64,000 nt of DNA from Clostridia bacterium (GCA_017415325.1 JAFQGY010000247.1:2018-66017), one strand, 5' to 3'. Positions 4,567 through 40,716 are shown, counted from the first letter of the stretch. The notes: generated by a model not told the origin, from the sequence alone. A program made the numbers and translations.

Positions 4567-6030
4567 TTACTGTGTCACTTCCAGTGCAGCCAGGGTCTTG
4601 CCCAGTGCGGTTTCCGCAGCCTTGGTAACTTTTTCCACACGGGAGGCCAGATCGGTCTTGTGGGCGGCGGTCAGGTCGGAGGGAACGTAGAAGAGCTTTC
4701 CCCAGTCATACAGCAGACCCAGTTCAAATATACGGGCGCTGAATACCATATCCAGAATCTGGGTGAAGATTTCGTCACGGGCAAACTTGGTGGTCACGCA
4801 GATGTCATAGTAGGCGGGGGTCAGAATGTACAGACCTTCGGCAGACAGCGCTTCCACCAGAATCCCGGTGCGGTCTGCGTCCTGCATGGACTTGGGCACA
4901 GCAACAGCAGTAGCCTGCAGCAGTGTCAGAATGGAGTGGTAGTTTTCCTGGGCTTCGTCATACTTCGGAATGGGCATGATACCGAAGTCGGTAACCATTT
5001 CCCGGAAGTCTCCCATGCTGCCTACGATACCGGTGAAGAACAGGGAGCGGTCTTCCTTGAAGATGTTGTTCCGCACGCCCCATACGTCGCCGCCGTAGCT
5101 GGGATAGTCGTTTACGATCCAGGAATATTCCTTGTTGCCGTTGATGTTGTAGGCACGGTTGAACACGTCAAAGTACCGTTCGGTGTTCATGGCGATGTAG
5201 GGAATGTCGTTTTCATCCTTCCGGAAGACATATTCCCCGGCGCCGGCAATATACACGTTGGTGTTCCATGCTTCGCCCAGCAGCCCCCACTGGTCATGTT
5301 CGTTCTGTACGCCGTCCCCGTTCAGGTCCACGGCACAGAGCTGCAGGATCTCGGTCATCCGGTCCATGGTCCAGGTGCCTTCCAGAGCCATGTCGTACAG
5401 GTTGTCCACGCCCAGTTCGGTGGCCAGCTTCTGGTTGAACATCAGCAGATAGGTGGAGTCGTTGTCACGGATATTGATATCCCCGACGATCATATGCTGC
5501 TTATGGCCGATGGAGATGGCGTCGTTGGCATACTGGTCGTACCAGGGCTTGGACAGGTCGATATAGGGGATTTCGTTGATGTCCAGCAGCAGAGAAGTGG
5601 TAGCCATATTGGCGGTGGTCAGGCAGGTTGCCATGGTGATGTCATAGGCATTGTCCCCGGCGTTGACGGCAGCCTTGACCGCATTGCCTGCAGCGGCGTC
5701 CATGATACCTTCGATGGTGACGTTGTACAGGTCTTCCACGGCGGCATTCCGCTGGTACACGGCGTCATTGATAGTTTCCCCGTTCAGTTCTTCCACGTCC
5801 ACTTCGGGATAGCGGTTGATCTTTTCGTAGATGATGTGGAATGCATAACCTTCAAAATCGCTGTCCGGCAGGTTTGTGGGAACACGGGTGGTTTCTGTCT
5901 CGGTTTCCGCAGTTTCCGCAGCGGCAGTATCGGCGGTGGTTTCCGCAGTTTTGGTGTCCCCGCAGGCAGCCAGTGCAGAAAGGAGCATGGACAGCACCAG
6001 CAGGAGGGTGAGGGATTTTTTGAATCGCAT
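4567..6030 (-). CDS. ABC transporter extracellular solute-binding lipoprotein (carbohydrate type)
   Basis: 487 aa. Signal peptide plus lipobox LSALAAC-GD. The size and composition fit family-1 solute-binding proteins. Confidence 0.8.
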   Translation of the reverse strand: MRFKKSLTLLLVLSMLLSALAACGDTKTAETTADTAAAETAETETETTRVPTNLPDSDFEGYAFHIIYEKINRYPEVDVEELNGETINDAVYQRNAAVEDLYNVTIEGIMDAAAGNAVKAAVNAGDNAYDITMATCLTTANMATTSLLLDINEIPYIDLSKPWYDQYANDAISIGHKQHMIVGDINIRDNDSTYLLMFNQKLATELGVDNLYDMALEGTWTMDRMTEILQLCAVDLNGDGVQNEHDQWGLLGEAWNTNVYIAGAGEYVFRKDENDIPYIAMNTERYFDVFNRAYNINGNKEYSWIVNDYPSYGGDVWGVRNNIFKEDRSLFFTGIVGSMGDFREMVTDFGIMPIPKYDEAQENYHSILTLLQATAVAVPKSMQDADRTGILVEALSAEGLYILTPAYYDICVTTKFARDEIFTQILDMVFSARIFELGLLYDWGKLFYVPSDLTAAHKTDLASRVEKVTKAAETALGKTLAALEVTQ

Positions 6031-6068
6031 GGTATAAGTCTCCTTGGGTTTGATTTTCGTGTGGTTGT

Positions 6069-6097
6069 ATTATAGTACAGATGCCGGGGAGATGCAA
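6069..6097 (-). promoter_or_regulatory. candidate sigma-A promoter of the solute-binding protein gene
   Basis: On the minus strand: TTGCAT (6097-6092), a 17-nt spacer, then TATAAT (6074-6069). It lies about 40 nt upstream of the start codon at 6030. Confidence 0.4.
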
Positions 6098-6183
6098 GGG
6101 GGGTATGGGGGATAATCCTATACCCGTTGGCCGGCCGGTGTCTGCCTGGTCATATCCGTTCCGGTGTGCTAGGCTGAGGGGAT

Positions 6184-6558
6184 AGCTGAAATCGTACGCC
6201 GGGGAGTCGAACCCTCACCCCTGACGGGGTGGAAAAGTTCCTCGTTTGTTTGGCTGAACAGGAAATGCATCCGGGCTGCTTTGCCTGAGCCGGACAGGGG
6301 AGCGATTCCCGGAACTTTTACAGGGGTTTTCTATCCTCATAATCGAAAAAAAATATCCATACCGGGGAGCAGAGTCAGCTGAATCCGCACGCCGGGGAGT
6401 CGAACCCTCACCCCTGGCGGGGTGGAAAAGTTCCCTGATTGTTTGGCTGAATAGGAAATGCATCCGGGCTGCTTTGCCTGAGCCGGTCAGGGGAGCGATC
6501 CCCGGAACTTTTACAGAGGTTTTCTTTCCCCATAATCGCAAAAAAATATCCATACCGG
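6184..6558 (+). repeat. 193-bp tandem duplication (2 copies) of a structured element, candidate small RNA
   Basis: ACGCCGGGGAGTCGAACCC recurs at 6196 and 6389. I count 14 differences in ~182 aligned nt. Several differences preserve helices, including one compensatory pair (see findings). Confidence 0.7.
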
Positions 6559-6577
6559 ATGGCATGGATATTTTTTG
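6540..6577 (+). terminator. intrinsic terminator closing repeat copy 2 (A/T-flanked, could act in both directions)
   Basis: ATATCCAT (6546-6553) pairs with ATGGATAT (6564-6571) around a 10-nt loop. It is flanked by A7 and T6, so the stem can extend to 13 bp. Confidence 0.65.
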
Positions 6578-6648
6578 GTGGAGAGCAGTGCGCAAAATGC
6601 GAACACCAAACTTGAAATAACTACACGATACATCATTCTGACATCCTA

Positions 6649-6677
6649 TTTACATTCTGTCTTTTCTGTGCTATAAT
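6649..6677 (+). promoter_or_regulatory. candidate sigma-A promoter of dnaB
   Basis: TTTACA (6649-6654), a 17-nt spacer, then TATAAT (6672-6677) with an upstream TGc extended -10. Confidence 0.5.
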
Positions 6678-6702
6678 AGTCCTCCCAAGGAGGTGCGCAC
6701 AA

Positions 6703-8004
6703 ATGTTTGATCGTCAACTGCCTTTTTCGCTTGAAGCCGAACAAGCCACACTCGGCTCCATCCTCATAGACCCCGCCTGTCTCGATTCCATCAAAATATC
6801 CCGTGAAGATTTCCACCTGACCGAACACGCCGAAATCTTCACCGCAATGCAAAAGTTATATATAGAATCCCGCTCCATTGATATTGTCACCCTGATAGAT
6901 ACCCTGACAAAATCCGGCACATACGATGAATCAGGCGGCAGGGAATACCTGACCATCATTGCAACTGCAGTTCCAACCGCTGCCAACGCCGAAGAATACG
7001 CTGCAATTGTCAGGGATAAAGCCAACCTAAGACGGATCATCGAAAATGCAGAATCTGTTGCAGAAGCAGCCTATTCCGGTGAATCCTTTGAAACCGTATC
7101 ACAAATGGCAGAATCCAGTTTCTCCGGTATCTCGGATGGTATAGAACGAAAAGAATTCCTCCCCATCCAAGAAGGAATTCTGCAGGTATATAAAACTCTC
7201 AACAATCTCCGTGATAACCCCGACAAATACCGTGGTGTTTCAACTGGATTCAATGCATTGGATGATGTTATAATCGGCATGAACCGCTCCGATTTGATTC
7301 TGGTGGGAGCAAGACCCGGTATGGGCAAAACATCTTTCGTCATGAATATAGCCACCCACGCCGCCGCACAAACCGGGAAAACCGTAGCTATATTCTCGTT
7401 GGAAATGTCCGCAGAGCAGCTTATAAACCGTATGTTGTCATCTTCCGCCTGCATCCCGTCCTATTGCATGAGAACCGGAGAAATGTCCACAGAGCAGTCT
7501 ACAGCCCTTGCACATGCGTCCACCAAACTTTCAGAAACCAAAATCATGATTGATGATACACCCGGTATATCAGTATCTCAGATCAAGTCCAGACTGCGCC
7601 GCGCGAAGGATCTGGGTCTTGTGGTGATTGACTATCTCCAACTTATGCAAAGCGACAACACAAGCGCAAACCGTGTGCAGGAGGTAGGAGAGATTTCCAG
7701 AGGACTAAAGCTGCTTGCCAAGGAACTGGATGTTCCGGTAATCTGCTGCGCCCAGCTTTCCCGCTCCCCGGAATCCAGACCCGACAAACGCCCCATGCTG
7801 TCAGACCTGAGAGAATCCGGATCCATTGAGCAGGATGCAGATATAGTCATGTTCTTATATAGGGATGATTATTATAAACCTGATGAAGAAAAAACAGAAT
7901 CCTCAGTAGCAGAAGTTATCATAGCAAAAAACCGTCATGGTTCTATGGACAAAATAAAGCTCGGATGGATAGGGAAATACAACAAATTTATAAACCTTGC
8001 ATAA
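6703..8004 (+). CDS. dnaB: DnaB-type replicative DNA helicase (probably element-borne)
   Basis: 433 aa. N-terminal LPFSLEAEQATLGSILIDP, Walker A GARPGMGKTSF, Walker B VVIDYLQLM, and the SRSPE...LSDLRESGSIEQDADIV motifs. GC is lower than in the flanking chromosome. Confidence 0.93.
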   Translation: MFDRQLPFSLEAEQATLGSILIDPACLDSIKISREDFHLTEHAEIFTAMQKLYIESRSIDIVTLIDTLTKSGTYDESGGREYLTIIATAVPTAANAEEYAAIVRDKANLRRIIENAESVAEAAYSGESFETVSQMAESSFSGISDGIERKEFLPIQEGILQVYKTLNNLRDNPDKYRGVSTGFNALDDVIIGMNRSDLILVGARPGMGKTSFVMNIATHAAAQTGKTVAIFSLEMSAEQLINRMLSSSACIPSYCMRTGEMSTEQSTALAHASTKLSETKIMIDDTPGISVSQIKSRLRRAKDLGLVVIDYLQLMQSDNTSANRVQEVGEISRGLKLLAKELDVPVICCAQLSRSPESRPDKRPMLSDLRESGSIEQDADIVMFLYRDDYYKPDEEKTESSVAEVIIAKNRHGSMDKIKLGWIGKYNKFINLA

Positions 8005-13896: not shown

Positions 13897-16395
13897 TTAA
13901 GAAATCACCATTGCCAGACATTCCTCGTCTGTCTTAGCCTCAAACCACACTTTCACACTATGGATAGTTCCCACATACTTCCCAGTGGCAATAAACATAT
14001 TTCTGGTATGGGCGGTCGTGTTGATTTTGCCATCGGCAACGGTTGTAAGCTCAGTTGCGTCCTCTTTAGCGAAGAAGAAATTTCCACCGGAATGTCGCAG
14101 AACAAACTTATGGCGTATACCTAAACATGCATTCCAGGGCCATGTAGTAGTTGAGTCACCGTTAAATATACAGCTACGAGACACTTCACTACTTTCATTT
14201 TGAGTACCAGCGACTTTCCAACCAGGCCACGGACTTGCTATACTCTCTGCATCAAGCACCTTGTATCCTCCGTTAACGCCCTCACCATACACAGGCGTAA
14301 AATCCAAAAATACCGTATAATCTTTAACTTCGTCCTGAAGTTTGATGCCAGTGTCAATACCAGCGGTATTAGTTCCGTCAAACGTGGTTTCAGCAAGGCT
14401 ATACGCAACACTGGTGTCAACAGCCGCCACAGCTATTACAATATTGCCCGTTACATTGGTAATAGTAATCACGCCATCAGAATAAACCGTGGAAGTAATG
14501 TCAACGCCGCCCATTGTAATGGTGACGGTTGCACCTTCCAGAGTGTAGCCATCTTTTGCGGTCAGTGTTGCTTCGTAGCTTGCACCTTCTGTAACACTCG
14601 CACTTGTATTGCTATTGGTTACGCCGAACAGGTTGTTCGTAACAGAATACTGAGTTTCAATACCGCTAACCGTCACTGCGCAACTTGCAGAAACAATACC
14701 AGCGGTTGCCCGGATTACACAGCTGCCATCATGCAGGGGTGTAACCACGCCACCGTCTACAATTGCTACATTTTCGTCTGTGGATGTCCATACAACACTA
14801 TCAGTGGTGTCAGAAGGTTCAACTGTCGCCACCAGAGTTGCGGGTGTTTCGTTCGTAAAGGTCAGTGTTGACTGGCTCAACGTAATGGAGGTTGCTGCAA
14901 CTCTATATAAATATTCATCAACCCACTTCTGTCGTGCCAACGCATATGTACGAATCTGCTGTACATTATTCTTGCCCTGCAGAGGTATTGCTGTAAACGC
15001 TCCGTCTGCGGTTGTTGCGGCATAATCTTCTTTCACCAATTCTTCCGGCATAATATCCGTAAAGCGTTCAAATCGGTTAATGATATTTTCTATAGACAGT
15101 GCGCTGGACTTTAACTCTGCCCAACGTGCTTTTAGTTCGCTCCAAAACACTTCTTCCAGTCGAATATAGAGCAGATTCCCACCGCCGCTCATGTCCTCAT
15201 AACTGGAACGGGGATAGTCTGTTGCCACAAAATAGGCATTCCAGTTAAGCCCCCACGTTGCGTCCATGTCATAGACCTGTGCGAACCATTTAATACCATC
15301 CCATGTCATGAAAAGCTGGTTCTTTTCATAACCATCCATTCCGCACATAGCAAGACCAAACAGGTGATAATCAAGGAGACTCCGCACATCAATATAGTTG
15401 TCCAGATTTGCCTTGAATTCCTCATTGGTACTGTTCTGCACAAAGTCGATAACCTCGTTCCACCGGGTCATGATAGAATTCGGGACGGCATCATGGATTT
15501 CGTCAGACCACCCAGAGCCATTACTAACCCAAGATGCACGGAACAGAGCAGGATTGCCGCCCTCGCCACACAGAATGCAGTGGGTATCCAGCTCATCGTC
15601 CATGTTTGCCATCCACTTGTCTTTTGGTATATTGAGTGTATATCTTCCCTGATACACACCGTCAGCGTATACCTTGACGGGGAATCCATCAATAACGCCT
15701 AAATTTGGGCTTGTCCGCATCAGTTCGGGCAGTTCTGCATAATTGGCTCTGGACTTGATAATGTCACCCCAAATACGAGCAGACACCACGTTTCTGGCTT
15801 GGGAGAGGTCAGTCCAGTTCGCCTTGTAGCAATGCTTGTTCTGCTTGCCCCAGCCCTTGAAGTCTACTTTCAGCTTTTCGGTGCAATCTGCGTCTTTGTA
15901 CATCTTGACCGTCTGATTCTTTTTCGGGAAACGCATGGTACTGTTCCCCTGCGCCTTGATTTCAGCATACCCGGAAATATCTTCTGTTTTGGAGATATAC
16001 CGGAACGGTACAACAGCTTCATCTTTGGTTTGCTGTAAAGCCCCGCCGAAGAATACCTTCGGAATATCATCCTCTGCGGGTTCAACCAGTGTACCACCCA
16101 ACTCAGCAATCGCTTCCGAAAGTTCAGCAAGTTCCCGCTTAACTTCCCCCAGTTCCGTCTCCACGGGCACCGCAGCAGTCCCGTCCCACCAGTAGTCCGG
16201 CACATCCGCCGCCCGGATAAACAGATCCTGCCCCACTTTCAGCGTACCTGCATTCTCTGCAATATACGCCTCCATCTCCGCAACCGTGTCAAACACCACC
16301 CCCGGCGCCGCATTTTTGATTTCTTCAATCTTTGCTCTGGCAGTTACATCCGCAACCGGTCTCCCGTTTATGCTCTTTACTTCTGTTTCAGCCAT
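13897..16395 (-). CDS. tail fibre / receptor-binding protein with a CotH-like domain, a Big_2 Ig-like domain and a lectin-like C-terminus
   Basis: 832 aa. The central region (KKNQTVKMYKD...NWTDLSQARNVVSARIWGDII...VKVYADGVYQGRYTLNIPKDKWM...) resembles the CotH family. ITLSQSTLTFTNETPATLVATVEPSD...VWTSTDENVAIVDGGVVTPLHDGSCVIRA is a Big_2 repeat. Confidence 0.7.
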   Translation of the reverse strand: MAETEVKSINGRPVADVTARAKIEEIKNAAPGVVFDTVAEMEAYIAENAGTLKVGQDLFIRAADVPDYWWDGTAAVPVETELGEVKRELAELSEAIAELGGTLVEPAEDDIPKVFFGGALQQTKDEAVVPFRYISKTEDISGYAEIKAQGNSTMRFPKKNQTVKMYKDADCTEKLKVDFKGWGKQNKHCYKANWTDLSQARNVVSARIWGDIIKSRANYAELPELMRTSPNLGVIDGFPVKVYADGVYQGRYTLNIPKDKWMANMDDELDTHCILCGEGGNPALFRASWVSNGSGWSDEIHDAVPNSIMTRWNEVIDFVQNSTNEEFKANLDNYIDVRSLLDYHLFGLAMCGMDGYEKNQLFMTWDGIKWFAQVYDMDATWGLNWNAYFVATDYPRSSYEDMSGGGNLLYIRLEEVFWSELKARWAELKSSALSIENIINRFERFTDIMPEELVKEDYAATTADGAFTAIPLQGKNNVQQIRTYALARQKWVDEYLYRVAATSITLSQSTLTFTNETPATLVATVEPSDTTDSVVWTSTDENVAIVDGGVVTPLHDGSCVIRATAGIVSASCAVTVSGIETQYSVTNNLFGVTNSNTSASVTEGASYEATLTAKDGYTLEGATVTITMGGVDITSTVYSDGVITITNVTGNIVIAVAAVDTSVAYSLAETTFDGTNTAGIDTGIKLQDEVKDYTVFLDFTPVYGEGVNGGYKVLDAESIASPWPGWKVAGTQNESSEVSRSCIFNGDSTTTWPWNACLGIRHKFVLRHSGGNFFFAKEDATELTTVADGKINTTAHTRNMFIATGKYVGTIHSVKVWFEAKTDEECLAMVIS

Positions 16396-19041: not shown

Positions 19042-22000
19042 TTACTTTATCTTGACACCGTCCCGTTCCATCAGTTTCCGGAACCACTGTTCCCGCATAT
19101 AGGAATTGATGTCATCCCGGATGGATTCCAGTGCCGCCGCTTTTTCTGTGGCAGTACCGTCCTCCTGCAGAATGGATGGGTAGTTCAGTTCAAACAGAAT
19201 GGCTGTTTCCGTGTAATATTCCAGCATATCTGCCGCCGTGAGTTCCACATAATAGGATTTGTTATTCTCCCGCTGTGTGATCTGATCCGGCGTAACAATA
19301 TACGGTGCAATGTCGGATACGGCAAATCCAGCAGCTTCCGCAATGGCAGCTACTTCTTCATCCATCTCAGATACCATTGTATCATTGACAGATTTCATGA
19401 ACGCATTGACAAGCCGTCTTGTCTCTCTGGAAGATTCCTCGTCCCCGTCAGCCTTGATAAACCTGTTGCACTTGCTGTATACATCGGCAATCTTTCCATA
19501 CTTATATGCACCGTATACGTCATAGAAATCATACCCGTTCCCTTTACCACGGAGTTTATAAGTCGCCGCTCTGGCATCATATCCTTCCTTTGTGTCGTAG
19601 AAATAGCTGATTTCGTCTGTAGAATAGGTGTTGTCCGTACGGAATGTGCTTGTAAATTCGTCGAGTGCCGTTTTCCCACCAGCAAGAAGTCCATCTTCTC
19701 CAATAGAGGTGAGGATGTTTCCGGCGTATTCAATGAACTGCCCGACAAATCCGGTTGTATCGTCCATGATGAACTGAATCCGCATAGGTGACTGGTTCAG
19801 CAGCGCACCGATGGACTTTGCCACAGCAGAAGTGTTCTCATTAAACTGTTCTTCCGGAATCAGATTCTGATATGCCGTAGAAACGATGGGCGCACCTGTG
19901 AAGGTTTCGTTCTTCGCCAGTGCGTAAGCTGTCCCGAAAATGGTCACATCTTCTACACTGTGCGGTGCCATCAGCACACCGGACAAATAGTCTGTGAATT
20001 CATAGAACGCTCTCGGGTTTTCATCATAGGCAAATTCTACAACTCTGTCAAGCATGGTGGACAGAAGCATGAAATCTTTCTGCTTCGGAATACGGATAAA
20101 CTTGCCATTTCCCTGTGGTATACACCAGTATGCATTCTTGATATACCCGGACAGCTTGTTGTATTCTTCCTCTTGATCTTCTCCGGTAATGGCAGAACCG
20201 ATAATCTTGAATGCCTGCTGTAGAATGGACATGGTAAGGTTCATGGTTATAAACTTTGCCCATGCCTGTTTTAAGGCTTTTGGGTCTTTATTTTTACCCA
20301 ACACTTCAAGCAGATGGTAGAAAGACTGCAGTGATGCGTTGAAATACGGAACAAAGGAGTCTATCTGCTTACCGATTTTCCCACGGCGGGAGAAGTTCAC
20401 AGTGACTTCTTGTTGTTCTCTCATTGCTTCCAGACAGTCCAGACCTGCTTTTTCCGCTCTTTTGAATTCGGCAAGTCTCTGTGCAGATTCCCCTATATCC
20501 ACCATTCTTGCAAAAGCATTCCAGATGCGGGTAGGTACATGCAGAATCCGTTCAATTGTGCTGTGAGGAACCATATCCCACTCCACACTGCGAAGGGTTT
20601 TCATATCCCTTGTCATGGAACCTTCGTATCCGCCGCCTGCATCCATGAATCTCTGATATGCTTCTGTGTTTCGGAATGTGTCACTGATTGCAACTATGAG
20701 ATCAGAGGTATATTTCACAGGATTTACGGTAGTTGTGGAACTTATATATCCAGATTGTGTATCACGAATGAAGTTGGTAAACGCAAAGAACGGGTTTGAA
20801 CCGGTTGTGAGAACCTTGAATCCTGCTGTTGTTTTTGAGAAAAAGGCAGAAACTACATTCATTTCCGGTGTGGAAAGGCTTGTCAGCGCATTCAGAATCG
20901 CCTTGTCATGGATTTCATAGAACTCAGGCTTCCCGTTTCTAATGACTGAAACGACATTCTTCCCCTGGAACTGTCTCGGCTTCCATGATTCCGCCACATT
21001 ACCCATAGCTTCCTGCACTTCGTCAAGCACATTCTGTCTCTCGGCATCGGTCAGATTTTCCAATGATTTGAAATCAAAGTTCTGCAGTTTCTGGTATGCA
21101 GGGAACAGCCCGATTATATCCTTGTACATGGACTGAGGAATCTTCTCCGCAAAGACACCCATGTTTTCGTTGGCGTCCACATAATCGAAGAAAGCCAGTG
21201 CAACATCGTTTCGCATAGCCGCTTTCACAACGTTTTCTGTCTGGATCATTCTGTTCTCGACAGGAGAATATATATCTCTGCCGGAACCCTTGAAAGCCTT
21301 GAAAACATTGTTCTGGTCGGTATACCGGGAACGAGCCTTTCCGCCGATCTTCGTTTTGTCATCCATCACACGATACAGAGGGGAATAATGCGGATATTTT
21401 TCTTTCCACTGCTTTATGGTTTCTTCCGAAATGATACCCGACTGTGCTGCTCTGGAAAGAAGAAGATCATCATACCGGAAAAGTTCCTGCGCCGCTTCAT
21501 GGAAACCGGGATATTTGGATTCCACTTCCCGGATTCTCTTTTCCACTGTAGCCTGTACACGGTCATCCCCGTATACTCTGCCCCCCATGGGTCTGCCGCT
21601 AGGATTTTTCTTTTCCTGCTTCATATGATCCAGTGCCGCAAGGTCTACAAGATAGCTGTCGAAAGCATTTCTGTTGGCAGGAGTAACCCCAAATTCTGAA
21701 AGTCTGCCGGTAATACCAGCCCCCAGCACTTCACCGTATTTGTCTGTTGCATTTCCGTTCAGCCATCCACGGATTACGCTGTTCGCCTGCCGTTCCCGCA
21801 TTGCCGTGTTGTAGGTGCTCCCGAAATGTTTCAGAGCATACAGATCATCGAATACATTTATCATGAATCCATCCCACAACTGTTTCCCGGTTTCTCCCAT
21901 GAAACCCTTGGGATCATACCGGGCTTCTTTCAAAGATACACCAAACTTGTGTAAAGGTGCGTTTTCCTGCGCTCTGTTGTGTACAGCCGCCTGCGCCCGT

Positions 22001-25000
22001 TTCCCGGTTTCGGAATCATAATAGGCGTTGGACATTTCCGAAAGCCTTTCAATGTTATCTGTATCTCCGCTGTCCAGAAGAGAGAAAGCAGCATCCGTAA
22101 ACTTCGGGAACTGTTTTCTTGTTTCTTCTGCGTTTTCCAGATAACTTCTGAAATATTCAGAAACCATTTCATAGGGCATTTGGAATTCTTCATATCCTTC
22201 CGCTTCCAGTGCTTCATAGAAAGCAGACCGCAGCTCCGAAACTTCCGGCAGACTGTGCAGATTGTATCTGTTGTCCAGTCTGTGACCGATTTCGTGTGCA
22301 ATGGTCAGGAAATCTCCCGCCTGTGCTACACGAATGGTATCTTCCTTTGTTTTATAAAGACCTGCCTTTCCGCCCGTCTTGCCGTAGTTTATGGGCAGAT
22401 GGAACATCTTTTCTGCGGTAATTTTCAAATCATCCAAAGAAGGAGGCGTGTCCGCTCTGTACTCTTTTCCTTCCCGGACAGTTTCTTTCGCACTCTTTCT
22501 CTTATAATATATATCTCCGTCGGAATCCTTGCCAATGGAACGGACTTTCAGAGTATCAATCATATCAGAAAGAATTGCAACACCCTTTTCCCCGGAAGGA
22601 ATGAAATACCGATTCTGGAACTGGATGTTTTCAGTAATCATATCCGGATATTTCTGTTTCAGCGCAAACAGATTACCGCCTGTTACCTCCATACGGTTTT
22701 CGCCGGATACCCGTCTGCGGGATACAGTGAGCGTACCACCGTACTGCCCGTTGAAAACAACAGTCTGTGCTTTCTTCATGACAGCATCGTATATTTCGTT
22801 TCCTGTATATACTTTGTTGTCCCCCTTTACATCGAAACTGCGAAGAACAGCATCAATCTGTTTCGGAGGAATAATTCTGCCAAGGTATTGTGACCCGTCT
22901 GCGGTTGTAATCCGTCTTGCCTTTGTGGTGCCGTCGCTGGGAAGTCTGTTCCATATGGGCAGAAGCGCACCTGTAATCATGTGTACTTCGTTTTCGTTGT
23001 ATTCCGGCACATCATGGACGGCTTCCTTCCATGCAGATTCCCATTCTTTTGCAGGAATCTTTTCGGTTTTGGCTTCCAGATTCCGTTCATTCATAGTATT
23101 GGATACAGCAGTATTGGGGCTTTGCAGCCTATACCGCTTGCTGACACGTCCGAAATTGTCCGTCTGGTCGGCAATACGGTACACAGCCCGAACCGAACCA
23201 TCTTCCATCCTGCGAATATCCACAAAGTTGGGACTGTATACTCTGGCATCTTCCACCGATTCTATCACAGAAGGCTTGTTGTATACCAGCGCACGGATGT
23301 ATTTGGTTTCTGCTCCTGTGCTTTCATCGGTATACACCGTTTCTTCCTGACCGATTTCGATTTTGTCTGCCTTTACGTTTTCCATACCCATGTCCAGTGT
23401 ACCGGCTTCAATGGCTGCATCGTAGTATGCCTGACGGATATTTTCAAAAGCCGTAAACACAGCATTCTGTTCTTCCACTTCAAGACCGAGAATCCGGTTA
23501 AGGAACTGAGGAATATCGGAAGCCACCGTTTCATTCAGTTTGAATCTGCCGTATTCATCATAGAACTTTTCGTACAGCCCCAACTTTTTCAAAGTGCTTT
23601 CCGGATCAATTCCCGATAGCTGACCATTCCCCATCTTTTTGTAAAATTCCCGCAGTGCTTCACTGGAAAGCGGAGATTCCAAGTTGTCCTTTTCGCCAAA
23701 CACACCAGAGCCTGTCTGTCTCTGTCCCTTTGTCAGTGCGCCGAGCTGGTCAAGCCGTCTTGCAATGGAAGTGACAAACCGCTTATGTCCCATTACATCG
23801 GTGGATACCAGTTTGAAAACAGGTGTATCAACCTGATTGGAACGGTGTGTTCTGCCAAATCCCTGCACTGCCTTGTCTGCCTGCCATCCGGGCTGCAGGA
23901 CATAATGAATTCGTTTCTGCTGGTTTTTGGCTCTCTTGTCTGCATGGTAGCTTCGTCCGGTAGACCCAGCAGAGGAAAACACAAGAATCCGTTTTTTGCC
24001 ATCCTGAAAGTCTCTTGTTTCCGCAATATTCGCTTTGGTGGAATTGCGTTTTTCGAGTTCCTTCCGGATATTGCCGTTTTCATCTTCTTTGTTTACGACA
24101 CGGGAACTTCTGCCGGTAATTTCCGCTACCTGATCTGCTCCGAAATGGTTGATAAGCATGTCCAGAGGCCCTTCCGGAATGCTGATTTCGTTGATCTGTG
24201 CAATCAGCGCATCTCGCATTTTTACAGCCTGTCTGTTCAGCACAGGATTTCCAGCGGAATCCACAACCGGTCGTGACTGTTTATTACCCTGTTCATCCAG
24301 ATATTCTTCATACTGCTGTACAGGAAATGCATTGTTCACATAACCGGTAATCAACTGACGGGGAGTAATGTCCAGATTGTCAAGATCGGTTTCACCCTTC
24401 GACTTGGATTCGCTTACAGCCGTATCCTGCGCAGATTCATTGGTATTCACAAGCTGGATAACACAGGAATGCCCTGCTTTCAGTTCTTTTTCAATGTCTT
24501 TAATCACAGAGGGCATTGCCATGGAAGAAAGAACCTGATTGTAGAACTGCTGCATATTCCCGTATATCTGCCCTCTGGCACGTTTCACCTGAGAACTGTT
24601 TGTGGAATCCGTAAGAACCATAGCTTTGTCAAAGTTTTGCAGAACCACCTGCCATCCCTTTGACATAGTGTCATACATATACCGCTGATCTTTTGAGAGT
24701 TTGTGCTGAAGCTGGTCATACACAACACCGTCGTAGGAAATGCTTCTTGCCAGATATACGCCCATGGCTTTCATGTCACGGGCCACCAGTTCCATAGCAG
24801 CTATACCGGCACGGCCAATCTTGGATATGAAATCTTCTTCGTTGACAAAGTTTGTTCCTTCTCCCCACAGGCCGAGGCGCTGTGCATACGCCAGATTTTC
24901 AATATTGGTAGCACCGGTGGCAGAAGCATACACAATTCTTGCATCCGGCACTTCTGCTTGGAATTTATTCCCCGCAATGGCTTTTTCTGAGGGCTTTCCA

Positions 25001-28000
25001 GTACCAAACTTCTTTTTAGTCGGTTTCAGATTTGCCATATTGTGTGCTTCGTCAAACACGATTACACCGTCAAATCCTTCTCCGAGCCAGTTTTTTATAG
25101 TATCCAGATGCTTTACGCCCTGTTTTCCGCCTTTGCTCTGTGTACCGCCTTTCAGAGTATCATATGTAACAAATATAATACCATCAGAAATACCGGAAAT
25201 GTTTTTCTTCACAGAATCCTTGGAATAATCAAAAACTTTTGCAGGGTCTCCGCCAAGGTCTGTCCAGTCTCTTACAGCATCTTCAAACAGCGTTTTCTTT
25301 TCAGAAACCCAAACAGCCTTGGTTCTACCCTGGTTGAAGTTGTCCAGAATGATCCCGGCAAGCTGTCTGCCTTTCCCAACCCCGGTACCGTCACCTATGA
25401 AATAACCCTTTCTTGCACCGTTCTTCAACACCTGTTCGTGCGCCTGTCCGGCATAAGAGATATTTTCAAGCTGTGCATCAGAAAGTGCGCCATCATCAAT
25501 AAGTTTCTGATCCAGTTTCGGTACATAATGCAGTTCCGGCGAAGAAACAGCAGACATAGCGGAAGATTCCACAAGCACTGCAGGGTGCTTCTTTGCCCCC
25601 TTCACAGTCAGCGCAGCAGGTCTGTATGTGGCATATACGCCATCATCTTGCTCTGCGGCTTTCTTGGTCTTCGGTTTCTTTACCAGATGGTCTGCATCAC
25701 TTCCCCCAGAGGGCCGTCCGCCAGATTCCATGCGTTCTCGAATTGCAGATTGTCCATTGCTTCCTCGAACTCCTGTTTTGCCGGTGCCGGGAGCGGATTC
25801 TCTTTCAGATACGTTTCCAGTTTCTCCCGAATCTCCCGGAACTGCGGTGTCCAGTATTCCTCGCCCAGATCGTTCTCCTCCTGCATCAGTTCCCGATACT
25901 GTATCGGACTGTTCTCCAGATACAGTGTCACTTCCAGAAGTCCGTCGTCTGCCGGAATCTGACCGCTCCATCCGTTTGTCAGTGCTTCCCTCGCTGTCTC
26001 TTTCAGATACTGCAGGAGCCACACCGACTTCGGGTCCGGTGTCATTCCCAGCAGTTCCATAATCCGCTTCACTTCCTGTCCCAGCGGTGTACTGTTGATC
26101 CGTTCTGTTTCTGTCATTTCTTACTCCTTTCAGAAGTTCCGGAATCTGTTTCAGATCATCGTAATTCCCGGTAATGGTTTCTCCCGTCTGCGCTCCTGTC
26201 TTGTCAATCACAAGCAACTGCACATCAAAGGTAGTTCCGTATTTCCGGTAGTTTTCTCCGTTAATCCCGATATTCGCCCGGATGCTGTAATTTTTCCGAA
26301 GTGTATCATACCAACCTCTAAAGGTAGGTGTATCGTTTGCCATTCCTTTTCCCACAATGGCAACCAGTCTGCCGCCCTCCTGCAGTCTTGCAAGAGCCTG
26401 TTCAATGTGCGGAATGGCGTTCTTTGTGGTGTTTTTGGTTCTCCCGCCAGTAGAGGAAAAGGGCGGATTCATCAGAACCACAGTAGGTGACACAGATTCC
26501 GGCAGAATGTTGTCAATCTGTTCTGCATTTTCCTGATAGAATCCATCAAAAGGCAGCTCTTTCAGCATGGCAAGACGGCTCTCGGAAAGTTCGTTGACAT
26601 ATACTGCTGCCCCATCCGCTTTTGCAAAGGAAGCCAGTCCGCCAATTCCGGCAGAAGGTTCCAGTACCGTGTCTGTACCATCAATATTTGCCACCCACGA
26701 TGCCAGATAAGCAATGTTCGGAGGGGTAGAGAACTGCTGCAGGTTGATCTGTTCCTCTGTCCGCTTTGTCTGTGTGGGAATCTTTGAGAGAATATCTTCA
26801 TCAATTTCCTTGATGGATTCCACAGCATCATTGGGATTGTTTGTGTTAAAATCCCCCTGATTTTTACCCACCAGATCAAGGATATACCGGTTTACACCCA
26901 GTTCCAGCGCATCTGTCATTGCCTTTACATCATATGCCCCCTCTGCCATGGTTCCGCCATACGAATCATTGGCAGCAGCCTGCAATTCCTGTGTGGTGAT
27001 ATTCCTGTGAGCAGTCAGACCATCCAGAACAAAATCAGAAATTTTTCCTGCAGGAGTAGTATTGGCATTCTCACCGCTTTCTTCTATACTGGTATCAGAA
27101 CGAACTGTCTCCGATTCCCGCAGTTCTTCTTTGGCTTCCTCTGTAACGGATTCAGAAGGTGTCCCGGCCGGAGGTTCCTTTGTTTCTGCTGTACTTTCCG
27201 CAACATAATCCGTGTCCGCAAATGCCGCAATATCCCCGATTCTAGATGCATCCGGTACTATGAATCCCTTTGCATACCGGGAATAATACCCGCCGACATC
27301 TTTCATGTAGTCTTTCAGTTTCTGGTATTCCTCACTGGAAAGTCGTCTTGTGGACTGGAACACATTCAGTTTCTTTCCGTCTCTGGTATCCGTGTGCAGG
27401 AAATGATGCAGACTGAATTCCTTTTCCATTGTACCACTTTCCGAAGTATTCTGCAAGGGTTCTGTGGTGTCATTGCCGCTGTTTTCATCCGGAATTGCAG
27501 CAGTTTTCTCAACAGTTTCAGTGGTTTTTGCAACATCTTCAGAAACCGGCGTATTCTGTTCCGTTTTCGGTGCAGTAAATATGGATTCCAGACCACGGCG
27601 AACTGCATTTCCGGATTCTTCAATCCCCTGCCAGTCAATAGAATCATGTTTCCGCCGCAGGAATTCTTCGATGGTTTCCCGGTTTTCCCGCAGTGTTTCA
27701 TCCACTTTTACCATAACTGCCCGTCCGATCTGTGCCTGTCTCTTTTCTTCCGGTGTCTGCGCTTCCCGGATTTCTTCATCCTTGTTCCGGATTTCCTCCA
27801 CCACGTAATCAATGGTGGCATCTACAGCGTTTTCGTCCGGTTCCAGCCCTTCTTCCACTACAGATACCAGTTCCGCCACGTTCTCCACAACATTGTCGGC
27901 AGCACCGTTGACAACACTATCCAGTGCTTCTGCCATGTCCGAGTTGTGGGTGATAATTTCTTCTCTGTGCGCTTCCAGTTCTTCACGAACATCAGAAACT

Positions 28001-29529
28001 CTGTCACGGATGTATTCCAGACGGGAAATATTATCTTTGGTTTCTTCCGTCTGCTTTTCCGCTTTCAGTACGTCAATGTTTTCATCGCACATGGTAGTCA
28101 TTGCATCCATGGTCTGTTCGAGCTTCTGAACGTCCCCATCGTTTTTTACAGAAGCCGCCGCCTTGGAAATGGCGTTCACTGCATCGTAATCCGAGCGGTA
28201 TACAGAATATCTCCCCGGAATGGAAGGAACATTGTAAACAGAACCCATAATCGCACCCAGAAGCCCTTCATACGCCACACTGGCTGCGTCTATTTCTGCA
28301 TCAGGGTTATATGTCGCCCTCTGGTTTGCCGTGGTGATAAGGCTCTGGATAACTTCCTCTGCACCTTCTCCGATCGCTTCGGATGCAGCCTTGGAAACCG
28401 CTTTCAGCATGGGTTTGGAACCAAAGAATCTGTTCAGTGCCTTGCCTGCATATCTGCCTACAGTATAGTCAAGAATACCGCTGCCCACACCGGCTGCACC
28501 GCCTAAGAGCATATCCACAAGTGCCTGATTTCCAGCTTCTCTCAGCGCATAATTTCCGGCCTGTTCTGTTGTAGCCCCTTCCGCTTTTGCTTCATCGAAT
28601 GCCATGGGGTATGCCTGAGCCGCAATAGTTCCTGCGGAGAGAACGGAACTTACAAGAGAAGATGGATTTCCCGTTGCATAAGACATCATCACGGCAGGAA
28701 GCATATATGCAGTGGTGGCATTCAGATCGCCAAGAGTCTTTATGACAGAATTGGAACGTGCTTTTTCATATGCCGGATTTGTGTCGGCATAATCCGAATC
28801 TTTTCCAAGCAGCTCTCTTGTTTTCTGCTCTTTTTTATTCTGCTGTTCCAGCGAATCATTGAATGCCTTGTTCCCGGCTGCCAGCGCATTCTTACCCAGT
28901 TCAATAACAGGCTTGATTTCAATGTTTCTGGCATCTTCCATATTCCCGGAACGAAGTGCCTGTGCCATCTTTTCTTTGGTGGCATCCACAGGATTGTGCT
29001 GCAGCTGAGATTCTGAACGCAGACTTTCAAAAAATGCCTTTACTGCCGGTACAGCAGCTTTCCCGGTTTTGTCAATGGCGTTCATTGCTTCATCGAACAT
29101 TTCCTGTCCTCTGCTCTGAATATAGGAAAGCCCGCTTTTCTGTTTGTAGGCAGGTTTTACAGGAAGTGCGGAAAGGGTATTCTGCAAAACCTCACGCTTG
29201 GAAGCTGTGCTGAGAGGCAGTGCAGGTGTGGTTCTGTTGACCACTCCTGTGATCGTGGTTTCGGGTATTTCCGGTGTTTTCTGTCGATTCTGCATCAGGT
29301 TAAGAGCTGCCTGTGCTGTATCTTGCTTTACAGGGACAGCAGGGCTTTGGGCATCCGGAGCATAAAATCCATGTGAATCCCCGGAAGATGTAGTTTTCTC
29401 ATCCCTACGCAAAGCAGCATAAGCGTCTGCATAATCCTTGTACTTGTCAGAATTCTGGGAGGAAGCTTTCCGGCGTTCCTCCCTTTTCTTTTTCAGTGCC
29501 TCATACGCATTCGTATATTTGGAATCCAT
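19042..29529 (-). CDS. 3,495-aa polyvalent virion protein (N6-adenine methyltransferase + SBNO/SNF2-like helicase + zincin metallopeptidase, DarB-like)
   Basis: A single uninterrupted ORF. Motifs are located below. It lies inside the virion-protein cluster, between a 426-aa protein and the fibres. Confidence 0.85.
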   Translation of the reverse strand: MDSKYTNAYEALKKKREERRKASSQNSDKYKDYADAYAALRRDEKTTSSGDSHGFYAPDAQSPAVPVKQDTAQAALNLMQNRQKTPEIPETTITGVVNRTTPALPLSTASKREVLQNTLSALPVKPAYKQKSGLSYIQSRGQEMFDEAMNAIDKTGKAAVPAVKAFFESLRSESQLQHNPVDATKEKMAQALRSGNMEDARNIEIKPVIELGKNALAAGNKAFNDSLEQQNKKEQKTRELLGKDSDYADTNPAYEKARSNSVIKTLGDLNATTAYMLPAVMMSYATGNPSSLVSSVLSAGTIAAQAYPMAFDEAKAEGATTEQAGNYALREAGNQALVDMLLGGAAGVGSGILDYTVGRYAGKALNRFFGSKPMLKAVSKAASEAIGEGAEEVIQSLITTANQRATYNPDAEIDAASVAYEGLLGAIMGSVYNVPSIPGRYSVYRSDYDAVNAISKAAASVKNDGDVQKLEQTMDAMTTMCDENIDVLKAEKQTEETKDNISRLEYIRDRVSDVREELEAHREEIITHNSDMAEALDSVVNGAADNVVENVAELVSVVEEGLEPDENAVDATIDYVVEEIRNKDEEIREAQTPEEKRQAQIGRAVMVKVDETLRENRETIEEFLRRKHDSIDWQGIEESGNAVRRGLESIFTAPKTEQNTPVSEDVAKTTETVEKTAAIPDENSGNDTTEPLQNTSESGTMEKEFSLHHFLHTDTRDGKKLNVFQSTRRLSSEEYQKLKDYMKDVGGYYSRYAKGFIVPDASRIGDIAAFADTDYVAESTAETKEPPAGTPSESVTEEAKEELRESETVRSDTSIEESGENANTTPAGKISDFVLDGLTAHRNITTQELQAAANDSYGGTMAEGAYDVKAMTDALELGVNRYILDLVGKNQGDFNTNNPNDAVESIKEIDEDILSKIPTQTKRTEEQINLQQFSTPPNIAYLASWVANIDGTDTVLEPSAGIGGLASFAKADGAAVYVNELSESRLAMLKELPFDGFYQENAEQIDNILPESVSPTVVLMNPPFSSTGGRTKNTTKNAIPHIEQALARLQEGGRLVAIVGKGMANDTPTFRGWYDTLRKNYSIRANIGINGENYRKYGTTFDVQLLVIDKTGAQTGETITGNYDDLKQIPELLKGVRNDRNRTDQQYTAGTGSEADYGTAGNDTGPEVGVAPAVSERDSEGSTDKRMERSDSGRRRTSGSDTVSGEQSDTVSGTDAGGERSGRGILDTAVPGDSGETGNVSERESAPGTGKTGVRGSNGQSAIRERMESGGRPSGGSDADHLVKKPKTKKAAEQDDGVYATYRPAALTVKGAKKHPAVLVESSAMSAVSSPELHYVPKLDQKLIDDGALSDAQLENISYAGQAHEQVLKNGARKGYFIGDGTGVGKGRQLAGIILDNFNQGRTKAVWVSEKKTLFEDAVRDWTDLGGDPAKVFDYSKDSVKKNISGISDGIIFVTYDTLKGGTQSKGGKQGVKHLDTIKNWLGEGFDGVIVFDEAHNMANLKPTKKKFGTGKPSEKAIAGNKFQAEVPDARIVYASATGATNIENLAYAQRLGLWGEGTNFVNEEDFISKIGRAGIAAMELVARDMKAMGVYLARSISYDGVVYDQLQHKLSKDQRYMYDTMSKGWQVVLQNFDKAMVLTDSTNSSQVKRARGQIYGNMQQFYNQVLSSMAMPSVIKDIEKELKAGHSCVIQLVNTNESAQDTAVSESKSKGETDLDNLDITPRQLITGYVNNAFPVQQYEEYLDEQGNKQSRPVVDSAGNPVLNRQAVKMRDALIAQINEISIPEGPLDMLINHFGADQVAEITGRSSRVVNKEDENGNIRKELEKRNSTKANIAETRDFQDGKKRILVFSSAGSTGRSYHADKRAKNQQKRIHYVLQPGWQADKAVQGFGRTHRSNQVDTPVFKLVSTDVMGHKRFVTSIARRLDQLGALTKGQRQTGSGVFGEKDNLESPLSSEALREFYKKMGNGQLSGIDPESTLKKLGLYEKFYDEYGRFKLNETVASDIPQFLNRILGLEVEEQNAVFTAFENIRQAYYDAAIEAGTLDMGMENVKADKIEIGQEETVYTDESTGAETKYIRALVYNKPSVIESVEDARVYSPNFVDIRRMEDGSVRAVYRIADQTDNFGRVSKRYRLQSPNTAVSNTMNERNLEAKTEKIPAKEWESAWKEAVHDVPEYNENEVHMITGALLPIWNRLPSDGTTKARRITTADGSQYLGRIIPPKQIDAVLRSFDVKGDNKVYTGNEIYDAVMKKAQTVVFNGQYGGTLTVSRRRVSGENRMEVTGGNLFALKQKYPDMITENIQFQNRYFIPSGEKGVAILSDMIDTLKVRSIGKDSDGDIYYKRKSAKETVREGKEYRADTPPSLDDLKITAEKMFHLPINYGKTGGKAGLYKTKEDTIRVAQAGDFLTIAHEIGHRLDNRYNLHSLPEVSELRSAFYEALEAEGYEEFQMPYEMVSEYFRSYLENAEETRKQFPKFTDAAFSLLDSGDTDNIERLSEMSNAYYDSETGKRAQAAVHNRAQENAPLHKFGVSLKEARYDPKGFMGETGKQLWDGFMINVFDDLYALKHFGSTYNTAMRERQANSVIRGWLNGNATDKYGEVLGAGITGRLSEFGVTPANRNAFDSYLVDLAALDHMKQEKKNPSGRPMGGRVYGDDRVQATVEKRIREVESKYPGFHEAAQELFRYDDLLLSRAAQSGIISEETIKQWKEKYPHYSPLYRVMDDKTKIGGKARSRYTDQNNVFKAFKGSGRDIYSPVENRMIQTENVVKAAMRNDVALAFFDYVDANENMGVFAEKIPQSMYKDIIGLFPAYQKLQNFDFKSLENLTDAERQNVLDEVQEAMGNVAESWKPRQFQGKNVVSVIRNGKPEFYEIHDKAILNALTSLSTPEMNVVSAFFSKTTAGFKVLTTGSNPFFAFTNFIRDTQSGYISSTTTVNPVKYTSDLIVAISDTFRNTEAYQRFMDAGGGYEGSMTRDMKTLRSVEWDMVPHSTIERILHVPTRIWNAFARMVDIGESAQRLAEFKRAEKAGLDCLEAMREQQEVTVNFSRRGKIGKQIDSFVPYFNASLQSFYHLLEVLGKNKDPKALKQAWAKFITMNLTMSILQQAFKIIGSAITGEDQEEEYNKLSGYIKNAYWCIPQGNGKFIRIPKQKDFMLLSTMLDRVVEFAYDENPRAFYEFTDYLSGVLMAPHSVEDVTIFGTAYALAKNETFTGAPIVSTAYQNLIPEEQFNENTSAVAKSIGALLNQSPMRIQFIMDDTTGFVGQFIEYAGNILTSIGEDGLLAGGKTALDEFTSTFRTDNTYSTDEISYFYDTKEGYDARAATYKLRGKGNGYDFYDVYGAYKYGKIADVYSKCNRFIKADGDEESSRETRRLVNAFMKSVNDTMVSEMDEEVAAIAEAAGFAVSDIAPYIVTPDQITQRENNKSYYVELTAADMLEYYTETAILFELNYPSILQEDGTATEKAAALESIRDDINSYMREQWFRKLMERDGVKIK
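22282..22296 (-). other. HExxH zinc-metallopeptidase motif of the giant protein (aa ~2412)
   Basis: Codons CAC GAA ATC GGT CAC encode HEIGH within ...GDFLTIAHEIGHRLDNRY... Confidence 0.6.
23650..25542 (-). other. helicase region of the giant protein (aa ~1330-1960)
   Basis: P-loop GDGTGVGKGRQ (25369-25395), DEAH in VIVFDEAHNMAN (25042-25053), and the C-terminal lobe ILVFSSAGSTGRSYHAD and QGFGRTHRSNQ (23833-23865). This architecture resembles strawberry-notch-type helicases. Confidence 0.75.
25680..26117 (-). CDS. embedded +1-frame ORF: acidic 145-aa protein (candidate overlapping gene)
   Basis: ATG at 26117 lies 6 nt after AAAGGAG (26130-26124). The sequence looks globular (28 D+E vs 12 K+R) with CTG/CCG/CGG-rich codons. 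The giant-gene frame is low-complexity over the same nucleotides. Confidence 0.45.
   Translation of the reverse strand: MTETERINSTPLGQEVKRIMELLGMTPDPKSVWLLQYLKETAREALTNGWSGQIPADDGLLEVTLYLENSPIQYRELMQEENDLGEEYWTPQFREIREKLETYLKENPLPAPAKQEFEEAMDNLQFENAWNLADGPLGEVMQTIW
26155..26770 (-). other. N6-adenine DNA methyltransferase domain of the giant protein (aa ~920-1125)
   Basis: Motif I LEPSAGIGGL (26641-26664) and motif IV NPPF (26458-26469). Confidence 0.8.
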
Positions 29530-40642: not shown

Positions 40643-40716
40643 TGGGACATCAGGGACTCGAACCCCAAACCGTCCGGTTATGAGCCGGATGCTCTCACCA
40701 TTTGCGCTAATGTCCC
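40643..40716 (-). tRNA. tRNA with CAT anticodon (Met, or Ile2 if lysidine-modified)
   Basis: Hand-folded cloverleaf: acceptor GGGACAT/ATGTCCC, anticodon arm TCCGG-CTCATAA-CCGGA, T arm TGGGG-TTCGAGT-CCCTG, discriminator A. 74 nt, no encoded CCA. Confidence 0.8.

Follow-up and report, generated by a model that had tools for sequence, protein, structure and literature searches.

A Tandem 193-bp Repeat beside a Prophage in an Uncultured Clostridia Bacterium: A Candidate Recombination Scar in a tRNA-Ala Trailer

The Repeat Array

The 64,000-nucleotide (nt) stretch of DNA analysed here (the window) belongs to an uncultured Clostridia bacterium and forms part of a 73.9-kb scaffold of ruminant-gut metagenomic origin. 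Between a chromosomal lipoprotein gene and a prophage, it carries two tandem copies of a 193-bp sequence that an earlier note had described as a structured RNA with its own terminator. The main value of the present analysis is a correction of that description, as the feature is better read as repeated trailer DNA of a transfer RNA (tRNA) gene, tRNA-Ala(GGC), which the prophage has displaced. The two units were delimited by Tandem Repeats Finder, alignment and BLAST, with no strand assigned to either:

6184-6376, repeat unit 1 (193 bp)
6377-6569, repeat unit 2 (193 bp)

Together the units cover 6184-6569 and are 92% identical. Tandem Repeats Finder reported a single array at 6184-6558 with a period of 193, 1.9 copies, 92% matches and a score of 652, in agreement with the two tandem copies first noticed. 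The count of 14 differences in 182 nt was reproduced by a gapless alignment, and self-BLAST aligned 182 nt at 92.3%. The 25-mer at the start of the unit is found in the window only at 6197 and 6390, with 0 occurrences expected in shuffled sequences, and nothing else similar to the units is present in the rest of the 64-kb window. The units have no coding capacity: a 126-amino-acid (aa) open reading frame (ORF) at 6215-6595 on the minus strand starts inside phage DNA, changes frame from copy to copy and has no homologue among 5.8 billion proteins.

The array was compared with three phage-free (empty) sites from independent assemblies, namely L099 (a Logan assembly whose contig stops inside the tRNA), L152 (the NCBI metagenome-assembled genome GCA_965324585.1) and L153 (a JGI metagenome), and with three free-phage contigs of about 59.3 kb (L004, L005 and L007). 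Two further lineages were included, a sister species (L101) and an intermediate lineage (L154), which share 87.6% and 93.5% nucleotide identity, respectively, with the lineage of the window in the lipoprotein gene. The species is not represented among GTDB genomes, where a search for synteny through the lipoprotein gave a best match of only 43% identity.

The Terminal Hairpin and the Displaced tRNA Gene

The array closes with a hairpin whose shape is that of a bidirectional terminator (A7, a 12-bp stem, a 4-nt loop and T6/7):

6540-6577, minus strand, intrinsic terminator of tRNA-Ala(GGC), from its fold (-20.3 kcal/mol, z -5.7), the empty sites and L101

As had been observed, the complete A7-hairpin-T6 is present in copy 2 only, while of this structure copy 1 has only the A-run, left arm and loop (6346-6365), and alignment of the copies places the duplication boundary in the hairpin loop. 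What did not survive is the attribution of this hairpin to the repeat as its own terminator. In all three empty sites the hairpin directly follows the CCA end of the tRNA, and in the sister species, where no repeat unit is present, it is kept with paired substitutions. Because it adjoins the tRNA in the empty sites and is retained in a lineage free of units, the hairpin is the terminator of the minus-strand tRNA-Ala(GGC), which the prophage has moved 59 kb away. ARAGORN locates this tRNA gene, complete and on the minus strand, to the right of attR at that distance from the repeat, and also calls it in L152 and L153. An integrated element can therefore hide the very gene that explains a neighbouring feature.

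Read along the minus strand, the native locus runs from GreA through a 497-aa lipoprotein gene to tRNA-Ala, which is preceded by a perfect TTGACA-17-TATAAT promoter; after it stand the hairpin and the repeat units, then a TTGCAT-17-TATAAT promoter (6097-6069) and a 487-aa lipoprotein gene, the last of which forms the left border of the intergenic region:

4567-6030, minus strand, chromosomal lipoprotein gene (487 aa, solute-binding-protein-like), from its ORF, its lipobox and homologues carrying the annotation of extracellular solute-binding proteins
6069-6097, minus strand, likely promoter of the lipoprotein gene (TTGCAT-17-TATAAT), read from the sequence

The TATAAT of this promoter is kept in L099, L152 and L153; the promoter scan did not flag it, its first hexamer matching at 3/6 positions. 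As it lies between the repeat and the gene, a role of the unit as a 5' leader or riboswitch of the lipoprotein gene was rejected. The lipoprotein genes on the two sides of the tRNA-Ala/repeat spacer (4567-6030 in the window and 3824-5317 in contig L012, both on the minus strand) are paralogous, about 40% identical, and belong to a large multi-copy family of uncultured gut Clostridia and Oscillospiraceae.

In the sister species the spacer between tRNA and lipoprotein gene is about 200 nt long and shows no detectable similarity to the unit, with scores at background. A shared 9-mer and a similar G-rich hairpin were considered as signs of homology between the unit and this trailer and were rejected as within chance. 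In the minus-sense trailer of L101 (95-125), about 36 nt after the tRNA terminator, there is another G+C-rich hairpin with a U-run behind it (GGGGGGCCGCUACCCCCUUUUU), which may be a back-up terminator. It is placed like the GGGGA-GCGA-UCCCC hairpin of the unit, a likeness that is not significant.

The Prophage and Its Attachment Sites

To the right of the terminator the following features were identified:

6575-6584, no strand assigned, attL crossover region (TTGGTGGAGA), from attP in L004, attR in L012, the empty sites and the BLAST breakpoint
6585-64000, no strand assigned, prophage of about 59.2 kb that continues beyond the window end, from Pfam domains (DnaB, portal, capsid, amidase), free-form contigs and the right end of the scaffold
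6649-6677, promoter of dnaB, from the promoter scan
6703-8004, dnaB, from the Pfam DnaB domain

The placing of the chromosome/prophage junction at the edge of the repeat was borne out by BLAST, as the similarity between the window and the free-phage contigs L004 and L005 begins at 6575. The 10-bp block TTGGTGGAGA is the sole sequence common to attP (...gagtatgTTGGTGGAGAgcagtgcgc...) and attB, and corresponds to the ...UCUCCACCAA 3' end of the tRNA; the recombinant sites read ...ggatattttTTGGTGGAGAgcagtgcgc... at attL in the window and ...gagtatgTTGGTGGAGAtaaggggagtcgaacccc... at attR. The phage has thus inserted at the CCA end of the tRNA gene and has split the tRNA from its terminator. The repeat had been proposed as the integration target, whereas attP, attR and the empty sites identify the target as the CCA end plus the T arm of tRNA-Ala. 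Units are already present at the three empty sites, and attB is the tRNA CCA end, past the hairpin.

The gene for the serine recombinase, together with attR and tRNA-Ala, is located about 0.3-1.9 kb past position 64000. In the free phage this large serine recombinase of 537 aa, with Resolvase, Recombinase and Zn_ribbon_recom domains, is encoded directly upstream of dnaB. The domains, the short block of attP/attB identity, a free form and an empty site are all present, and the left junction is the attL of a large serine recombinase. The attP site (L004 9853-9903) forms an imperfect inverted repeat, GTGTTCGAC ... GCGAACAC, whose centre falls within the 10-bp shared block. In the right half of attB, which is the T arm of the tRNA, a CGAAC motif stands 5 bp nearer the centre than in attP (attR, L012 3640-3690); such a 5-bp offset between attB and attP motifs is reportedly the geometry expected of large serine recombinases in the structural model of Rutherford and Van Duyne. 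The left half of attB, made up of the right arm of the terminator (6555-6584 in the window), has little symmetry. The locus is a clean natural case in which a serine-integrase phage takes the CCA end plus T arm of a tRNA for its attB and carries attP within its own integrase gene, and it could be useful to the mining of serine integrases and their sites.

The attP site was also seen to fall within the 3' end of the recombinase gene, some 100 nt short of the stop codon (L004 9840-9974; L008 10873-12423). As a result, the protein of 537 aa in the free phage becomes one of 516 aa in the prophage, where the ORF crosses attR into tRNA-Ala in antisense. A 40%-identical serine recombinase in an IMG/VR contig (L132 4300-4577) ends at the CCA end of a minus-strand tRNA-Leu(TAG), and this recombinase clade may characteristically target the 3' ends of tRNAs. 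In close relatives of the phage with identical DnaB and neighbours (L009 4091-5511; L013 1281-2701), a 348-aa tyrosine integrase replaces the serine recombinase, and a tRNA 3' fragment (GGGTTCAAGTCCCGTCTCCCGCA) is found in the 374-bp gap before dnaB; these variants represent a swap of the integration module with a different tRNA target. Elsewhere in the prophage, on the minus strand, a single 3495-aa ORF (19042-29529) is located among the structural genes, a phage tRNA-Met(CAT) follows the portal gene region closely on its downstream side (40643-40716), and an 832-aa protein with CotH kinase and Big_2 domains (13897-16395), which could be a tail or host-interaction protein, adjoins the lysis amidase.

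Anatomy of the Junctions

Both ends of the repeat unit are made of pieces of the tRNA gene and its terminator:

6152-6200, no strand assigned, junction J0, a degenerate left arm of the terminator (ATATCCGTTCCGG, 6152-6164) plus a 36-nt patch ending in AGCTGAAATCGTACGCC, from the alignment of all junctions
6201-6222, minus strand, fragment of the tRNA-Ala variable loop and T arm in unit 1 (GGGGAGTCGAACCCTCACCCCT), from local alignment to the tRNA
6346-6393, no strand assigned, junction J1, made of A8, left arm and loop of the terminator at 6346-6365 and a 28-nt patch at 6366-6393
6394-6415, minus strand, the corresponding tRNA-Ala fragment in unit 2, from local alignment and reconstruction of the empty site

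The start of each unit matches the variable loop and T arm of the tRNA at 20/23 bases, a match reached by 2/300 shuffles for copy 1 and by 0/300 for copy 2. Every unit closes with the terminator's A-run, left arm and loop, and direct repeats of 19-23 bp made of these elements bound the units. Between the conserved junction flanks, 29 nt of the real gene (right arm, T-run and acceptor/CCA) have been swapped for a patch of 28-29 nt, and in J1 it is a 28-nt patch that stands in for the right arm, the T-run and the acceptor end. The J0 of the L099 orthologue retains both hairpin arms (14.5 against 8.7 +/- 1.5, 0/500 shuffles), and it is perhaps only there that the acceptor strand or CCA can still be recognised in a tRNA fragment of the units. 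The genuine T arm is found, in the empty site, 195 bp beyond the fragment of unit 2, close to the 193-bp period, which indicates that the tRNA itself is the next partial repeat, in register. The array therefore appears to read J0-core-J1-core-J2, where J2 is the tRNA, and each junction looks like a copy of a segment running from the terminator to the T arm.

The T stem of the unit fragment has lost one G, and the fragment is accordingly not a functional T arm. This bears on the proposal that the units give a minus-strand, tRNA-like trailer RNA produced by read-through of the tRNA-Ala terminator, each unit ending in a mimic of the T arm. On the minus strand the T-loop sequence GGGUUCGACUCCCC is indeed in the sense orientation, with a hairpin ahead of it as in class II tRNAs, and the unit is directly downstream of a strongly promoted tRNA. 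However, only 3 pairs of the T stem remain after the loss of the G and no pairing partner for an acceptor is available, nothing was returned by ARAGORN or by the Rfam models for tRNA, transfer-messenger RNA (tmRNA) and YrlA-type RNAs, and a strong terminator stands in between. Moreover, substitutions of the wobble type become A-C mismatches on the minus strand, whose consensus fold is the weaker of the two. We regard such a trailer RNA as highly improbable. Two simpler candidates were rejected outright: a decayed copy of the whole tRNA-Ala gene, with which only 23 nt align, and a minus-strand tmRNA-like or tRNA-like molecule, given the broken T stem, the missing acceptor partner and the absence of any model match.

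The J1 patch (6366-6393) is an imperfect palindrome centred on CAGCTG. Against the P' arm of the phage (6580-6607) it matches at 18/28 positions without gaps, a likeness with a local p of about 0.002 (some 0.2% of shuffles), and a score of 18 against the P' arm is also reached at 5 other positions when the whole window is taken on both strands. The patch may be a fossil att half-site or a chance likeness. Together with the direct repeats, this patch is part of the case for the array being a small non-autonomous mobile or mobilisable element, either similar to a miniature inverted-repeat transposable element (MITE) or a mini integrative element with an att-like site, that targets the terminator/3' region of tRNA-Ala and is moved in trans by a recombinase. 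The inverted repeats of the unit would then serve as protein-binding sites or as single-strand DNA structures. Also consistent with such an element are the T-arm motif xGTCGAAC, which recurs in three half-sites of the phage att sites (B', P and P'), the variable copy number and the presence or absence of the unit among close lineages, and the position of the locus at an active integration hot spot. Against it, neither the window nor 1.37 Mb of loci nor any collection scanned showed a second location; the unit lacks terminal inverted repeats flanked by a target-site duplication, its inverted repeats being internal and its ends direct repeats of tRNA and terminator sequence; a circular recombination substrate of 193 bp would be very small; and the phage-free strains already carry the units. 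A mobile element of this kind is improbable, less so than the trailer RNA.

Relatives of the Unit and Variation among Strains

The statement that the element matches no known RNA family was upheld: at the gathering thresholds of Rfam 15 the phage tRNA-Met is the only match in the window, as it is for ARAGORN, which finds no tRNA or tmRNA in the repeat region. When Rfam was searched at E<=10 over 5900-6900, only sub-threshold chance matches to the hairpin appeared. No unit was detected by BLAST in phage and plasmid collections, and a search of viral contigs with three patterns returned a single match, due to chance. The 25-mer search of GTDB genomes gave no match, the 25-mer spanning an A/G polymorphism, and both matches of a pattern search of JGI contigs were chance occurrences in a coding region, a weak negative in that the JGI record of L153 itself was also not returned. 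An nhmmer scan of the 151 fetched loci (1.37 Mb in total) found no unit at any other location, and no other copies were found in the window or in about 45 kb of other chromosome of this species.

Derivation of the unit from this phage was rejected, as it resembles neither the DNA adjacent to attP nor the attP region of the tyrosine-integrase variant; the weak local score between the unit and the 3' region of the recombinase gene is reached in 6-8/200 shuffles. Likewise, no supporting feature or model match was found for a group II intron remnant, a retron, an attC site or a single-stranded DNA (ssDNA) hairpin element.

The content of the tRNA-Ala trailer differs from strain to strain:

L152, one unit
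Window and L099, two units
L153, two units and a third with an internal deletion
L154, only the first ~90 nt of the unit
L101 (sister species), no unit

In the L154 remnant the GGGGA 5' strand has been replaced and the CACCCC hairpin weakened, after which unrelated sequence follows. The unit stops there after TTTGGCTG (L154 1-110), and the unrelated sequence, open in one frame, extends to the contig end; the breakpoint could be the edge of another element inserted at the same tRNA-Ala site.

The cores of the units differ by 13-17% between the window strain and L153 and by 5-7% within a strain. For comparison, the adjacent gene differs by 4.4% overall, with synonymous differences in 10.5% of its codons. 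Divergence of the cores at about the synonymous level, together with the low difference within a strain, points to near-neutral change with local homogenisation, as in tandem repeats. Between the window and L099, J0 and unit 1 form the most divergent stretch of the whole locus.

Origin of the Array

The explanation we favour, to which we give slightly better than an even chance, is that the array is a duplication or integration scar in the trailer of the tRNA gene. With the same modest confidence, the units would be non-coding, lineage-specific filler in the tRNA-Ala(GGC) trailer, the product of recombination rather than a gene. In a first step, the 3' region of tRNA-Ala would have undergone an insertion or a rearrangement, which left about 150 bp of foreign or rearranged DNA between two copies of the segment running from the terminator left arm to the T arm. 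Unequal homologous recombination or slippage between the flanking repeats of about 70 bp might then have given rise to one unit, two units, or two units plus a deleted one, and gene conversion would keep the copies within a strain more alike than the orthologues of different strains. The 59-kb serine-recombinase phage would have come later, its insertion at the tRNA CCA end parting the tRNA from the terminator and bringing the repeat up against attL. The origin of the unit and the mechanism behind its copy number are what we infer from these comparisons, and the nested inverted repeats would be a property of the duplicated DNA rather than a sign of a selected RNA. In keeping with a scar, the array adjoins an intact attachment-site tRNA, and its presence varies among close relatives (none, one, two, two plus a deleted unit, and a decayed one). 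A pattern of partial tRNAs together with decayed elements in tandem has been described for tRNA integration sites (PMC5704250; bioRxiv 10.1101/2020.12.28.424599).

Several observations weigh against this explanation. No integrase remnant or other trace of an element survives in the units, and the displaced tRNA fragment has no recognisable acceptor strand, unlike classical tyrosine-integrase scars. The junction centres (28-29 nt) are far more diverged than their flanks, which is not what duplication followed by neutral decay predicts. In addition, the consensus fold of seven copies of the unit on the plus strand reaches -50.1 kcal/mol (z -3.9 against column-shuffled alignments) with 47 pairs, and 94-98% of cells pair, depending on the structure tested. 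The inner helices contain about 10 one-sided changes that are compatible with G-U pairing on the plus strand, and 2-4 pairs have changed on both sides, for example from G-C through G-U to A-U in the GNRA hairpin (105:112) and from G-C to A-U at 57:96.

Folding and Possible Transcription of the Unit

These last observations, which amount to a modest excess of pair-preserving changes on the plus strand, speak for a different explanation, according to which the unit or the array is a young, species-restricted small RNA (sRNA) of the plus strand, transcribed towards tRNA-Ala and stopped by the shared bidirectional terminator. Its fold would comprise the closing stem, the 6-bp hairpin, the 9-bp long-range helix and the GNRA-capped hairpin. 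The helices listed in the earlier note do exist in the minimum-free-energy folds of both copies:

6216-6231 and 6409-6424, hairpin CACCCC-TGRC-GGGGTG
6297-6310 and 6490-6503, hairpin GGGGA-GCGA-TYCCC
6233-6241 with 6311-6319, long-range helix AAAAGTTCC...GGAACTTTT, with a counterpart in copy 2

The closing stem GGGGA/UCCYC is present as well. By contrast, the change from CCT(c)GTT/AACAGG to CCT(g)ATT/AATAGG, which had been put forward as compensatory, turned out to be a one-base register shift and not covariation in the same columns.

In support of an sRNA, the consensus fold is better on the plus strand than on the minus strand, where it reaches -37.5 kcal/mol (z -2.6) with 32 pairs, a comparison of strands biased by the fact that the structure was taken from plus-strand folding. 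The outer, framework helices are invariant in the seven copies, most changes in the inner helices are compatible with G-U pairing on the plus strand only, and it is also only on the plus strand that GCGA is a GNRA tetraloop. Furthermore, the 5' end of the putative RNA carries 14 nt perfectly complementary to the T arm of tRNA-Ala, and the array closes on the plus strand with a hairpin and a T-run. Nevertheless, that hairpin is demonstrably the tRNA's, the folds of single copies are unremarkable in stability (z -0.95 to -3.1 for the 144-nt cores), and the shuffle controls for covariation (7-8/500) are borderline, falling within the range that the tool reports for unconstrained related sequences. 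The pair-preserving signal on the plus strand is thus suggestive and is no evidence of function.

No consensus promoter for the unit was found on either strand by the promoter scans, whereas the promoters of the adjacent tRNA, lipoprotein and dnaB genes are near-perfect, and only weak promoter-like sites (8-9/12) occur, at least 100 nt upstream of the units, near 6045-6074. The weak candidate TTGGGT-18-TATTAT (about 6045-6074), whose equivalents in L152 and L153 were flagged at 9/12, can be counted in favour of an sRNA, whereas the lack of a strong or unit-associated promoter and the fact that conservation along the locus is lowest just ahead of unit 1 count against it. An internal promoter at the 3' end of each unit (TTTACA-15-CATAAT) was discarded on account of its poor spacing and the loss of its -10 box in L153.

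The comparison among lineages is unfavourable to an RNA gene. Conservation with compensatory changes was not found beyond the species, the unit being absent from the sister species and decayed in L154, where the loss of the 5' closing strand and the weakening of the first hairpin indicate that the fold is not maintained in every lineage. An RNA gene is weakened by the lack of homologues outside one species-level clade, by a copy number that ranges from 1 to 2+ and by a rate of change close to neutral (divergence at about the synonymous rate), and further by the decayed lineage, the lack of a conserved promoter and the making of the unit ends from fragments of the tRNA and terminator. An RNA gene at the repeat is accordingly not demonstrated and the structured-RNA reading is unproven; we consider the sRNA unlikely, if less so than the mobile element. 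Its fullest form can be granted somewhat less probability still: a very young plus-strand RNA of about 190-230 nt, which would have been born from duplicated DNA at a tRNA integration hot spot, convergent with tRNA-Ala and sharing its terminator, with a 14-nt complementarity to the T arm, a fold kept by wobble and compensatory changes, and one or two doses according to the strain. If true, it would offer a rare view of an sRNA at birth, and nothing here requires it.

Comparison with Known Systems

The hairpin at the end of the array resembles Rho-independent bidirectional terminators in its A-run, 12-bp stem, 4-nt loop and T-run, and in its place right after the tRNA CCA. The units themselves are like BOX, RUP, ERIC and Correia-type MITEs in being 100-200 bp in size, in their nested inverted repeats with predicted stable RNA folds, in lying between genes and in being present in some strains and absent from others. 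Unlike these elements, which occur scattered through a genome in tens to hundreds of copies, the unit has been seen at a single locus, and there always in tandem.

Serine integrases commonly choose insertion sites other than tRNA genes. Among the prophages of M. abscessus, the majority of tyrosine-integrase attB sites overlap tRNA genes (PMC8092301). The attachment site described here agrees with those of phiC31, Bxb1 and A118-type phages in the Resolvase/Recombinase/Zn_ribbon_recom architecture of the recombinase, in the 10-bp attP/attB block and in the imperfect inverted repeat of attP. It differs from them in targeting a tRNA gene, at its CCA end and T arm, and not a protein-coding gene, in that attP lies inside the 3' end of the recombinase's own gene, and in the 193-bp repeat outside the att site.

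The closest parallel to the favoured explanation, a scar in the tRNA trailer, is found in the partial-tRNA remnants and tandem accretions of the cis-mobilizable element (CIME) type next to integrative and conjugative elements (ICEs) and integrative and mobilizable elements (IMEs), and in the degraded elements of Prochlorococcus islands, which carry additional partial tRNAs (PMC5704250; bioRxiv 10.1101/2020.12.28.424599). The differences are that the units are only 193 bp long, with no gene or integrase remnant, that the repeated fragment comprises the variable loop and T arm without the acceptor end, and that the left arm of the terminator is repeated as well; in addition, plain unequal crossing-over accounts for the copy number at least as well as repeated integration. 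As in those systems, the units are distal to an intact tRNA gene, appear to be bounded by a partial copy of the tRNA 3' region and are stacked in tandem; they vary among strains and are absent in close relatives, and the tRNA in question still serves an active integrating element as its target.

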